NCBI RefSeq assembly: GCF_000009965.1
Contig: NC_006624.1
Span: 2,040,001 to 2,072,000 of the forward strand
Direction: 5' to 3'
Length of the DNA stretch: 32,000 nucleotides
From: Thermococcus kodakarensis KOD1
GTDB taxonomy: Archaea; Methanobacteriota_B; Thermococci; Thermococcales; Thermococcaceae
In this document: positions 2,370 through 9,893 of the stretch, in pieces
Position numbering within the stretch: position 1 is the first letter of the stretch
Layout: every line of letters starts with the position of its first letter
The notes under the pieces: model-generated
Told to the model about the DNA's origin: nothing
The model's input: only the letters and a program-made list of their open reading frames with translations
Database searches by the model: none
Position numbers and translations under genes: made by a program

Positions 2370-3563
2370 TCAGCCGTACATTACCTCGTGCATAGCTATC
2401 TGCTGTGCCAGCCTCTTCTCCGAGCCAATGACTTTATCCACGGCCTTGAGGAAGTCGTCCTGCGTAACGTACGTCCTCCTGTCCCTGATGGCGAACATGC
2501 CTGCCTCGGTAGCTATGGCCTTGAGATCTGCTCCGCTCGCCCCCTCGGTTATCTCCGCTATAACGCGCAGGTCAACGCCCTTGAGGTTCATCTTTCTCGT
2601 GTGAACCTTGAGTATCTCGAGCCTGCCCTGGTAGTCCGGGAGCGGAACCTCTATGAGCCTGTCGAACCTGCCCGGCCTGAGTAATGCTGGATCGAGTATA
2701 TCGGGCCTGTTGGTTGCCGCTATGACCTTCACGTTGCCCCTCGGGTCGAAGCCGTCCATCTCAGCGAGGAGCTGCATGAGGGTTCTGTTGACTTCCCTCT
2801 CGCCGCCGGTGGTTTCGTCCATCCTCTTTGCGCCTATGGCGTCTATTTCGTCTATGAATATTATCGTGGGTGCCTTCTCCTTGGCAAGCTCAAAGAGTTC
2901 GTGGACCAGTCTGGCACCCTCTCCGATGAACTTCCTTACCAGCTCGCTTCCGACGACGCGGATGAAAGTGGCGTTGACGTGATTGGCAACTGCCTTTGCC
3001 ATCAGGGTCTTTCCACAGCCCGGCGGGCCGTAGAGGAGAACTCCCTTCGGCGGCTCGATGCCGACCTGTTCAAACAGCTCAGGGTGCTTGAGCGGGAGCT
3101 CTATTGCCTCCCTGAGTTCCTGGAGCTGCTTCTCAAGTCCGCCTATGTCGTTGTAGGTGACCTTGGGCCTTTCAATGACTTCGAAACCGAGGACACTCGG
3201 GTCTTTCTCGCTCGGCAGGAGCTCGACTATCGCCATCGTCCTCTGGTCGAGTGCCACCCTGGCTCCTGGCTTGAGCTTGTCCCTCTCTATCCAAGGCGCT
3301 ATCCTGACAACGAAGCGCGGCCCGTTGTAGTTCTGAACGATAGCCCTTTCGTCGTCGAGCACCTCTATGACGTTCCCCGCAAAGGCCGGCGGCTGTCTGA
3401 GCCTTGACATTTCCATTCTCAGCCTTGAAAGCTCCCTCTCAAGTCTCTCCTTGTCTGCCTCCAGCGTTCTCACCTGTAACTCCAGCTGCCTGATTCTCCT
3501 TTTGAGGAAAGTGACGTAGTCATCGTAACCCTCCGGGTGAACGTCAGTGTTCTCAATACTCAT
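2370..3563 (-). CDS. pan: Proteasome-activating nucleotidase PAN (AAA+ ATPase)
   Basis: 397 aa. N-terminal coiled coil ([29 protein letters not shown]), OB segment, Walker A GPPGCGKT, Walker B IIFIDEID, and a C-terminal hydrophobic-Tyr-X tail (MYG). GAGGTGAG SD lies upstream of the ATG. Confidence 0.95.
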
Positions 3564-3780
3564 GGTATCTCACCTCTAACTTCTCTCCTGATGTATGTCT
3601 CGTTGGGACTCTTTTTAACTCTATCCATCCCAGCAGAAACAGGTTTGGGTTTTGGACAATTTCTATCTAATGCACAAGTTTATCATCCGTTGATTCACAA
3701 TGGTCTTCAAACTCAACTTCGAAACACTTATTAACCTTTTTGACGTTGGATATATTGGCACTACAATGGAGGGGTCAATA

Positions 3781-4530
3781 ATGAGGATTGAAATAAAACT
3801 CCGACCCGCTGAGGTGGGCACAATTCTTCCGTTTAACTACAACTACGAGGTCTATTCTCAGCTGCTTGAGAAGGTCTATCTGGTTTCTCCCGAACTTGGA
3901 AAGGAGGTTGAATCTAGTGGTGTTGACTACTTCACGTTCTCAAGGATAATGGTCAGGAAGAGGGAGCTCATTCCCGAGGCTGGCATTAGAGTTCTCTCCG
4001 ATGACGTTTCTCTCTACGTCTCCTCCCATTCCGCCGATGTCATCCATGCCATCGCCGAGGGCTTTCTCGATGACCCCCTCCTGAAGATTAAGGATGCCAC
4101 TTTTATTGCAGATGACGTTAAGGTTCTGAAGGAGCCCGAACTTAAAGGTCCCGTTCTCTTCTCAACGCTCAGTCCGATCCTCGTTAGGACGGTTAAGTTC
4201 GTCAACGGCAGGATGAAGGTGTGGGACCTCTATCCCGACGATGAAATGTTCTTTGACAAGCTCAGAAAGATAATGCTCATGCGCTATTCGAGCATTTACG
4301 GCAGAATGCCCGAAAACAAGGAGTTCAAAATTGAGGTTCTCAAGTTTAAGCCCGTCCGGATTCTCGTTAGGGATACCTACTACAGGAGCTCCCTTATGGT
4401 CTTCAAGTACTCTGGCTCACCCGAGCTGGCCTGGCTGGGATATGAAACGGGGTTTGGTGAAAAGACTCGCTACGGCTTTGGCATGGTTAAAGTAATTGAC
4501 TCAGAGCAAGGGCAAGAAGGCCAAGAATGA
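3781..4530 (+). CDS. cas6: Cas6-family RAMP protein, stand-alone (no array or other cas genes in window); possibly non-catalytic
   Basis: 249 aa from ATG 3781 (GGAGGGG SD 7 nt upstream; the track ORF starts 81 nt earlier at 3700). The C-terminal glycine-rich RAMP loop GYETGFGEKTRYGFGMVKV is very close to the Pyrococcus furiosus Cas6 C-terminus GYEVGFGEKNSLGFGMVKV as I remember it. The N-terminus (MRIEIKL.P....ILPFNYNY) also resembles it. First His is residue 83. Confidence 0.8.
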   Translation: MRIEIKLRPAEVGTILPFNYNYEVYSQLLEKVYLVSPELGKEVESSGVDYFTFSRIMVRKRELIPEAGIRVLSDDVSLYVSSHSADVIHAIAEGFLDDPLLKIKDATFIADDVKVLKEPELKGPVLFSTLSPILVRTVKFVNGRMKVWDLYPDDEMFFDKLRKIMLMRYSSIYGRMPENKEFKIEVLKFKPVRILVRDTYYRSSLMVFKYSGSPELAWLGYETGFGEKTRYGFGMVKVIDSEQGQEGQE

Positions 4531-5392
4531 ACTCTATGGCCCACACTATTGCGACCAGCTTTGGTTCGTTCACGCGCACTTTTCTCATTATCATCCCCAG
4601 AAAGCTTGGATAAGGTGGTGCCTTTAGCGTCCCGTCAGGCAAGACTTCGGTTCTTCCATGCTTTCTGACTCCAAACCTCACCCCAACTGCTTTTATAACG
4701 AAGTCAAGAAAGTGTGGTATCAGGAGAACCGCCCCGTAGGCTTCAACCTTTCCCACAACGGCAACGAGTCCAATAAGTGCTCCGAGGCTCAGGGTTCCAG
4801 TATCGCCAGGAAATACCCTGGCTGGATATCTGTTCCACCAGAGAAAGCCTAGAGCTGCAGCAGTTCCGATAAGGGCCAGCTCTCTGGCCGTTCCGTCGGT
4901 AAGCACTCCCAGGAAAGCCAGCGCTATCGCGCTCGTCCCGACTTCCAGTCCGTTGAAGCCCGCTAGCATGTTCACCAGGTTCGCTGAGCCCACCACGTAC
5001 AGAAGTGCCACTATGGGATAGATAACTCCGAGATTAAGGGGGAATCCGAATACGTCAACGTATCGGGGAATGTCAAAAAACATTACAGGTGAAGCGACTA
5101 TCAGGGACAGAGCAACCTTGTGGGACTGCTTTAAAGCAGCAAGGTCATCAATAATTCCCACTATCCCGAACAGGAGAAAAACGAGACCGATCTCTGGTTT
5201 GATTAAAGATGACACTGCCCCAATAGATATGAGCAGTGCCAATCCACCCATTTCGGGGACTTCGGGTTTGGTCAGCTTGTGTATATCCCTCCCAACTATC
5301 CTCGCCTTTTTCATGAGTCCGGCGATGTAGGGGGTTAGTACCGCCGAGAGAGTTAAGGCTATAAGGGGAGCCGCCGCTTCCATTACTGACAC
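4487..5392 (-). CDS. aglH: Glycosyltransferase family 4 (MraY/WecA/GPT-like) polyprenol-phosphate HexNAc-1-phosphate transferase, AglH-like
   Basis: 301 aa polytopic membrane protein with IIDDL, NLVNMLAGFNGLEVG and FPGDTGTLSLG motifs typical of the MraY/GPT superfamily. The start is GTG 5392 or ATG 5383. The 3' end overlaps the convergent cas6 by 44 nt. Confidence 0.75.
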   Translation of the reverse strand: MSVMEAAAPLIALTLSAVLTPYIAGLMKKARIVGRDIHKLTKPEVPEMGGLALLISIGAVSSLIKPEIGLVFLLFGIVGIIDDLAALKQSHKVALSLIVASPVMFFDIPRYVDVFGFPLNLGVIYPIVALLYVVGSANLVNMLAGFNGLEVGTSAIALAFLGVLTDGTARELALIGTAAALGFLWWNRYPARVFPGDTGTLSLGALIGLVAVVGKVEAYGAVLLIPHFLDFVIKAVGVRFGVRKHGRTEVLPDGTLKAPPYPSFLGMIMRKVRVNEPKLVAIVWAIEFILGLLALALSQLL

Positions 5393-8880: not shown

Positions 8881-9876
8881 TTCTAGCAAGCTTTTGGGAA
8901 AAGCTTCACTAAAAAGTTTGAACGTCTTTGTTAGATTGGCTGAGAAATGAGAAATTCTCCTAGTTCACAGGCGGAGTAATGTGGGTTTTCTTCTTTTTAA
9001 CGCCTTTCGGGCGTTATGCTACGAGCAAACCCCTGAAAATTGCTAATTGATGAGAAGAATCACTAAAAAACAGGGCGCTTAAAAGGACATTCCACCTTTG
9101 ATGAAACTTTTCGCCAGCAAGCTTGACCAAAAGCTTATAGCTTTTCTTTGAGGTGGTTTTATTCAGGATTTTCCACTGCTAGCGTGCCTGTTCTTGTAGT
9201 GAGAACATGTTTAGGGGGGAGTTTCCTGGAAAGGTGTTTTCTTTCTTTGACGCCCGAAGGACGTTGATTTAGAGTTAAACACGCGTTAACAGGATGAGTT
9301 TGAGAGTTCTCACATTCGAGACCAGCTGTTTGGTGGGAAAATCACGATGAATTGGGATTCTAAAAAAGAGCTATGAACCTTGATCAAACTTCGCCAGCAA
9401 GCTTTTGGAAAAAGCTTGACTAAAAGGGTTCCCTTCTCCTCAATCTCGCCTGTTAGGGGTGTATGCTCTTATAGAAGGCAAGCTCGCGCGGGTTTAATTC
9501 CAAATCTTCCCGCTAATTGTGATTTTGGCTTTCTTTTTAGTGCTCTTTGGGCACTATACAGTGAGAGAATCCTTTGAATCAGGCCAATTGAAAGTAAACC
9601 CCTTATAAAATGAGCCTGCTTAAAAACGCATACTATTTTTCCGCCAGCGCTGAAGCTTTTGGGAAAAGCTTCACCAAAAGTTTGAATGTCTTTGTGAGAT
9701 TGACTGAGTAAGTAGATTCTCGTGATAAATTTGCAGGGAATTTTGGTTTTTTCTTCTTTTTAACGCCCTTCGGGCGTTATACTGTGAGTAAACCCCCTTA
9801 AAACCGCTAGTTGAGCATTGAGAATCACTGAAAACTCGGTAGTATAAAAAAAGGACATTCCATCTTTGATGAAACT
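8881..9876. repeat. Tandem array of four paralogous non-coding units (A 8881-9109, B 9110-9389, C 9390-9638, D 9639-9876), family unknown
   Basis: Each unit begins with TTC(G)CCAGC plus a palindrome AAGCTTTT-GGN-AAAAGCTT (8888-8906, 9119-9136, 9399-9417, 9653-9671). Each also contains a pyrimidine tract plus a 17-nt hairpin (8999-9015, 9249-9265, 9539-9555, 9762-9778) and ends with an A-rich TATA-like box. A and D align along their full length. There is no credible ORF. Confidence 0.85.
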
Positions 9877-9893
9877 TTGCCCAGCAAAGTTTC
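9871..9893 (-). other. Perfect 10-bp hairpin 2 nt downstream of tRNA-Lys (possible processing/termination element)
   Basis: GAAACTTTGC-CCA-GCAAAGTTTC read directly. It overlaps the partial fifth copy of the array boundary motif. Confidence 0.5.

Follow-up and report, generated by a model that had tools for sequence, protein, structure and literature searches.

Why a gene of the Cas6 family should stand by itself among housekeeping genes, and what it does there, is the question raised by this part of the Thermococcus kodakarensis chromosome. The window analysed here is the whole stretch of 32,000 nucleotides from 2,040,001 to 2,072,000 of the single 2,088,737-bp contig, and the gene, cas6nc (TK2253), occupies positions 3781 to 4530 on the + strand (genome 2,043,781) with 249 codons plus stop. 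Its product carries the glycine-rich loop GFGEKTRYGFGMVKV (residues 224 to 238; positions 4450 to 4494, +), most positions of which are invariant in the orthologues and which is common to the catalytic Cas6 enzymes, and its only histidines are residues 83 and 89. The gene is divergent from that of the proteasome-activating AAA ATPase PAN (2370 to 3563, −; AAA and proteasomal ATPase OB domains) and convergent with an aglH-like GT4 (Glycos_transf_4) gene (4487 to 5392, −), with which it shares a 3′ overlap of 44 nt (4487 to 4530). On the cas6nc side this overlap takes in the last strand's end and a variable acidic tail (residues 243 to 249, pLDDT of <50). TRF run over the window gives no repeat array, and all other cas1, cas7, and cas6 matches of the genome lie at 375 to 392 kb. 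An earlier reading made from the letters alone (the sequence-only reading) had described just this situation, namely, a 249-aa Cas6-family protein with the loop and with no His before residue 83, encoded between pan and aglH with a 44-nt convergent overlap in 32 kb free of arrays and of further cas genes, and its description stands.

The gene starts at ATG 3781 and not at 3700, since all 50 of the 50 orthologues inspected, from six genera, open with MR[IV]E[IV][KR]. The longer open reading frame of 276 aa that begins at an in-frame ATG 27 codons upstream (3700) is ruled out by these N termini, and the region from 3700 to 3780 is one into which automated callers could over-extend the gene. PAN and cas6nc are separated by a divergent intergenic region of 217 bp (3564 to 3780), which contains putative A/T-rich TATA-like stretches at about 3727 to 3741 and 3750 to 3756 and, 5′ of cas6nc, a putative Shine-Dalgarno-like motif, GGAGGGG, at 3768 to 3774. 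The computed molecular weight of 28,761 (water included) compares with 28,743 listed for TK2253 (“Unknown”), and the neighbor matches TK2255. Peptides of TK2253 have been recovered in T. kodakarensis pull-downs with His-RPA2 and GAN (PMC2962436, PMC3152336), so the protein is made; we take this copurification as evidence of expression only and not of partnership.

The protein passes the cut-offs of TIGR01877 (8.6e-44; 150.4 bits against a curated cut-off of 58.65) and of both Pfam Cas6 domains, Cas_Cas6_C (2.3e-30) and the Cas6_I-A N-terminal domain (1.9e-16), with PF01881 at 106 bits and PF21350 at 60.5 bits. In a phmmer search of PDB sequences, the best match was the P. furiosus “Cas6-related” protein 3UFC (PfuCas6nc; 4.9e-89), followed over the full length by P. 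horikoshii PH0350 (PhCas6nc; 3QJJ, 3QJL, and 3QJP; 9e-86), and the catalytic Cas6 proteins were much farther away (Methanocaldococcus-type Cas6-1 5YI6, 2.4e-38; PfCas6 3PKM, 3e-27). An AlphaFold (AF2) model built with 17 orthologues in the input (pLDDT of 92.1, pTM of 0.87) has two tandem ferredoxin/RRM domains followed by the C-terminal glycine-rich loop; its top structural matches are all Cas6, and it superposes on 3QJJ and 3UFC with TM scores of 0.92 to 0.95 and an rmsd of 1.6 Å. It is near certain that the gene is the Thermococcus orthologue of the known, crystallized Cas6nc; the kind of protein is not new. The P. horikoshii paralogue, non-catalytic, to which the sequence-only reading had referred turns out to be exactly the relevant one, PH0350. 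Published reviews describe this protein as an “inactive homologue (PhCas6nc)” of PfCas6, with wrap-around binding of unstructured repeat RNA, mainly at the first ~10 nt (PMC3652601, PMC3727216, PMC3902920).

The canonical active site of Cas6 is absent from the T. kodakarensis protein. With residue numbers taken from the alignment of 3PKM with the T. kodakarensis PfCas6 orthologue (6.9e-95; chain numbering minus 5), Tyr31, His46, and Lys52 of PfCas6 lie in the motifs LIY, LH, and PKLFTYS. The counterpart of this segment in cas6nc is formed by codons 29 to 49 (3865 to 3927, +), where MAFFT and BLASTP concur in placing Leu29, Glu44, and Asp49 opposite the three catalytic residues, so that a His/Tyr/Lys triad, for which the alignment was checked, is not found. 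An earlier hand alignment had put Val43 and Asp49 at the His and Lys positions; Asp49 is indeed opposite Lys52, while the residue opposite His46 is Glu44, Val43 being off by one through a 1-residue indel, and Tyr31 is lost as well. Across the orthologues, the His46 position is occupied by Glu or Gln, the alignment of 49 unique orthologues contains no conserved His column, and His83 and His89 are not conserved and are absent from the Pyrococcus proteins. The suggestion of a stand-alone, probably cleavage-deficient, Cas6-like RNA binder is supported by the replacement of all three canonical catalytic residues together with the orthology to PH0350 and 3UFC, and judging from these orthologues and from the reviews, the protein is likely to be non-cleaving. 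The loss of His alone is no proof of inactivity, as two Cas6 proteins of Sulfolobus solfataricus that lack the general acid and base are active (PMC3727216).

T. kodakarensis has a CRISPR-Cas system elsewhere on its chromosome. A k-mer scan located three arrays, at 373.1 to 374.1, 469.0 to 470.6, and 833.5 to 836.0 kb, with the repeat GTTGCAATAAGACTCTAAGAGAATTGAAAG; the T. kodakarensis repeat reads GUUGCAAUAAGACUCUAAGAGAAUUGAAAG. A single cas cluster lies beside array 1, with cas6 genes at 375.5 and 391.7 kb, cas1 at 383 kb, and two DevR-type cas7 genes at 381 and 389 kb. The arrays, the cluster, and the two cas6 genes agree with the published description of CRISPR in this organism, in which three arrays, one cas cluster, and two Cas6 proteins are given and the third, distant paralogue is unmentioned (PMC3737340). 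The PfCas6 orthologue is the gene at 391,651 to 392,238. The other one, at 375,541 to 376,314 (L003:1492-2265, −), stands in a type I-A-like cluster beside cas4, csa3, and HD, retains the His, has Leu at the Tyr31 position, and gives weaker Cas6 profile scores (TIGR01877, 2.7e-25). The gene under study is away from any array or cas operon, the nearest array being ~417 kb distant when counted over the contig ends of a chromosome assumed to be circular. That it might simply be the only cas6, serving arrays just outside the window, is ruled out by this census of the complete genome, which places two further cas6 genes and all three arrays far away.

A six-frame search of 97 Thermococcaceae genomes recovered an intact, full-length orthologue (56 to 96% identity) in 93 of them, whereas Cas1 was found in 77 of 97. 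The orthologues are separated from all other Cas6 matches by a gap in identity (56 to 100% against at most 40%), and none was found in other families of the phylum. The four genomes without an intact copy comprise two incomplete ones, one that is 90% complete and gives a paralogue match only, and G025, a complete genome with a split gene. The pan-cas6-aglH arrangement, whose conservation the sequence-only reading had proposed to check, holds fully on one side only: the convergent pair with aglH is present in 6/6 genera, and PAN is the divergent neighbor in 4/6, being absent from this place in Pyrococcus (g3) and in g4. A wider block, RIO-MFS-PAN-cas6nc-aglH-(HAD-GT2)-TK2256-dcd-htpX, is found in four genera. 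In a maximum-likelihood tree, each of g2 to g5 forms a clade of its own at 100% support, and the distribution of genus labels takes no more than the minimum number of changes, which is consistent with vertical descent. Rooting with the catalytic paralogues was tried and given up, as the outgroup branches were saturated (length of 10), and we claim no root or order of events. In G025, an inversion of ~23.7 kb broke the gene near residue 148, leaving the N-terminal half (L054:3123-3566, −) with PAN and MFS as neighbors and the C-terminal half (L055:2890-3195, +) with aglH and TK2255. This strain appears to be a natural disruptant, and the gene is thus dispensable in at least one strain.

Constraint on the protein is strong. 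There are 69 residues that are invariant across six genera, among them the glycine-rich loop, the PFNYN, TFSRI, STLSP, and WDLYP motifs, and 13 Arg/Lys residues, and all 69 are kept in each of five held-out orthologues. Nei-Gojobori estimates of dN/dS range from 0.01 to 0.08. Our data show that cas6nc belongs to the core chromosomal genes of the Thermococcaceae, is inherited vertically, lies fixed beside aglH, and is under strong purifying selection.

The relation of the gene to CRISPR-Cas can be judged from genomes in which nothing else of the system was detected. The sole TIGR01877 match is Cas6nc in G020 (complete), in G038 and G092 (both 99% complete), and in G057 and G080 (both 95% complete). 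No Cas1, DevR-type Cas7, PF03787 RAMP, or Cas3 above the cut-off was found in these five genomes, nor any Csf2-type Cas7 in G020, G038, G080, and G092, by searches that recover these cas genes in positive-control genomes and whose negatives at the whole-genome level hinge on a loose first-pass filter. Matches to the type-6 repeat numbered 0 in G080 and 1 (weak, with 3 mismatches) in G038, against 55 to 258 in congeners with Cas1; G038 and G080 are draft assemblies, in which arrays or cas genes could be unassembled. Remnants persist in the other three: at least 11 repeats in G057, two stubs of 2 repeats each in G092, and in G020 a remnant array of 6 repeats whose 5′ segment is intact, which means that a repeat ligand is still available there. 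Large helicase open reading frames of 847 and 916 aa, both scoring under the Cas3 cut-off, occur 2 to 3 kb from the residual mini-arrays of G057 and G092 (G057:C45:1376-2338 and G092:C5:115475-116443) and may represent a conserved array neighbor rather than Cas3. Selection on cas6nc was estimated for three of the five with close relatives. The unsaturated G080/G076 pair gives a dN of 0.002, a dS of 0.18, and an omega of 0.010, G076 having Cas1 and 63 type-6 repeat matches; the values for the likewise unsaturated G092/G089 and G020/G073 pairs are a dS of 0.30 with an omega of 0.028 and a dS of 0.53 with an omega of 0.077, respectively.

Three further genomes, G015, G083, and G084, possess Cas1 and have Cas6nc as the only TIGR01877 match, and G015 has Cas3 and Cas4 as well. 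In the complete genome G015, cas1, cas4, and cas3 (HD plus helicase; TIGR01587, 233 bits) form a cluster at L056:9552-13350. No array lies within 10 kb on either side of it, and a search for a hidden Cas6 at this locus yielded only flanking open reading frames of 262 and 488 aa that lack a Pfam or NCBIfam match.

We also looked in T. kodakarensis for RNA other than CRISPR transcripts that might carry the binding motif. The 12-mer at the repeat's 5′ end occurs 76 times in the arrays and twice elsewhere in the genome, as exact copies of GTTGCAATAAGA at 231,202 and 505,233 (− strand), where ~0.25 would be expected by chance. With these two extra 12-mers, no genome-wide enrichment of the motif outside the arrays was found and no alternative ligand was identified. 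Within the window, the 5′ 13-mer with up to 3 mismatches gave 6 matches against 6.5 expected, none of them in the tandem array at 8881 to 9893.

The reading that we favor, with a probability of about 0.6, is that Cas6nc is a non-cutting, sequence-specific clamp for single-stranded RNA that acts in trans and has a role at least partly independent of crRNA processing. By analogy with the Pyrococcus orthologues, single-stranded RNA with the 5′ ~10 nt of the type-6 CRISPR repeat (GUUGCAAUAAGA...) would be clamped in the interdomain cleft of the protein and left uncut, and the protein may act in trans on transcripts that contain repeats and perhaps on some other RNA of the cell. That the gene is intact where other CRISPR-Cas machinery is undetected argues that its selected role does not depend wholly on canonical crRNA processing. 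Action in trans on distant arrays, an idea already put forward in the sequence-only reading, may occur but is not the whole story given the conservation without other detected cas genes. A tentative extension is that a Cas6 was exapted at the base of the Thermococcaceae as a housekeeping, sequence-specific binder of single-stranded RNA, with either a main ligand outside CRISPR or a role for CRISPR transcripts that does not involve the Cas effectors; if true, this would explain how cas6nc outlives the loss of a whole CRISPR-Cas system.

A less probable alternative, and the main rival, is that Cas6nc is an accessory dedicated to CRISPR, binding in trans nothing but CRISPR transcripts, either the 5′ part of the repeat in pre-crRNA or the 3′ handle of intermediates cut by Cas6. 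It could then compete with the catalytic Cas6 or take part in a hand-over from it, protect the intermediates, or tune 3′ trimming or loading, and its presence without detected cas genes would reflect recent cas loss or incomplete assemblies. Such a dedicated role would fit the specific binding of CRISPR repeat RNA by the orthologue reported in the reviews, the 5′ segment GTTGCAATAAGAC common to the complete repeats that were read in G000 and G020, the recovery of type-6 repeats in all genomes probed but G080 and G038, the small arrays that remain in 3/5 of the genomes without detected cas genes, and the lack of motif enrichment outside the arrays of T. kodakarensis. It is harder to reconcile with a gene that is commoner than Cas1 (93/97 against 77/97), that resides in a stable housekeeping block outside the cas loci, and that shows an omega of ~0.01 to 0.03 on short branches to G080 and G092, where no cas genes were detected, and also with the undetectable type-6 repeats of G080 and G038.

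It is unlikely that Cas6nc is an active endoribonuclease with a non-canonical, His-less site like that of the S. solfataricus Cas6 proteins, cutting CRISPR repeats or other RNA through conserved Lys and Arg residues. Enzymes of this type exist (PMC3727216), the N-terminal domain has Lys31, Arg55, Arg59, and Arg61 as invariant residues, and the Cas1-bearing G015, G083, and G084 have no TIGR01877 match besides Cas6nc. However, the Cas6 search in these three genomes covered the TIGR01877 type only, and an overlooked processing enzyme is therefore likely; moreover, published accounts of the Pyrococcus orthologues call them non-catalytic or without activity on repeat RNA, and Lys52 has given way to an acidic Asp49 and His46 to Glu or Gln. 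It is very improbable that the gene is a slowly decaying leftover, without function, of an old cas6 duplication. The inversion in G025 has split it without obvious consequence, but decay is already contradicted by the selection data (dN/dS of 0.01 to 0.08), as well as by the 69 invariant residues, the open frame kept intact in 93/97 genomes, and the protein seen by mass spectrometry. We retain the non-cutting RNA clamp as the best account of the gene.

The protein kind is already known, and taken as an annotation alone the gene adds one more ordinary orthologue of it. What is new here is the family-wide picture, that is, the status as a core gene, the conserved position, and the strong purifying selection, together with the survival of an intact cas6nc where other cas genes are undetected and its natural disruption in one genome. 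We found no published statement of this picture; the primary papers on the Cas6nc structures lie outside the literature covered, and no priority is claimed. Nor did we find an in vivo function assigned to Cas6nc in the literature, though its crystal structures date from 2012. Near-universality, a tree that follows the genera, constraint, and survival without detected CRISPR-Cas make this a concrete and testable case of a domesticated Cas protein, and with T. kodakarensis being genetically tractable and a natural disruptant apparent in G025, its role is open to direct test.

Among the known systems, the His-less Cas6 proteins of S. solfataricus (4ILL, 3ZFV) resemble Cas6nc in missing the canonical general acid and base, but they are active enzymes and only distant structural matches (TM of ~0.5 to 0.6; 11 to 12% identity). 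PfCas6 (PF1131; 3PKM, 3I4H) has the same fold as our model (TM of 0.83/0.88), shares the motifs PFN/PYN, FT[FY]S, TLSPI, DLxP, KPxR, and GFGEK..GFGMVKV, and by published description binds the repeat at its 5′ end in the same wrap-around manner. It differs in having only 31% identity and in possessing the Tyr31, His46, and Lys52 that are lost in cas6nc, and genes of its type are found at cas loci, whereas cas6nc is found in a housekeeping block. The closest catalytic-type relative by sequence, nearer than PfCas6, is the Methanocaldococcus-type Cas6-1 (5YI6; 33% identity), in which the HMMER alignment shows Tyr, His, and Lys retained at the triad positions. PfuCas6nc (3UFC), for which no RNA complex is among the PDB matches, is 57% identical to the T. 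kodakarensis protein; the gene of G006 (L038) reads as the 3UFC chain by eye and likewise adjoins aglH. The Pyrococcus proteins differ from that of T. kodakarensis in a His before the WTFS strand (SPHG[YF]WTFS), opposite which T. kodakarensis has Val48; the Thermococcus protein also has an acidic C-terminal tail of 7 to 10 residues, and PAN adjoins the T. kodakarensis gene but not the Pyrococcus copies. With PhCas6nc (PH0350), nevertheless, the protein shares 56% identity (Foldseek), the same length class, the same glycine-rich loop, and the same loss of the Tyr/His/Lys triad, and the Pyrococcus copies are also convergent with aglH at 5/5 loci, including the one that encodes 3UFC.
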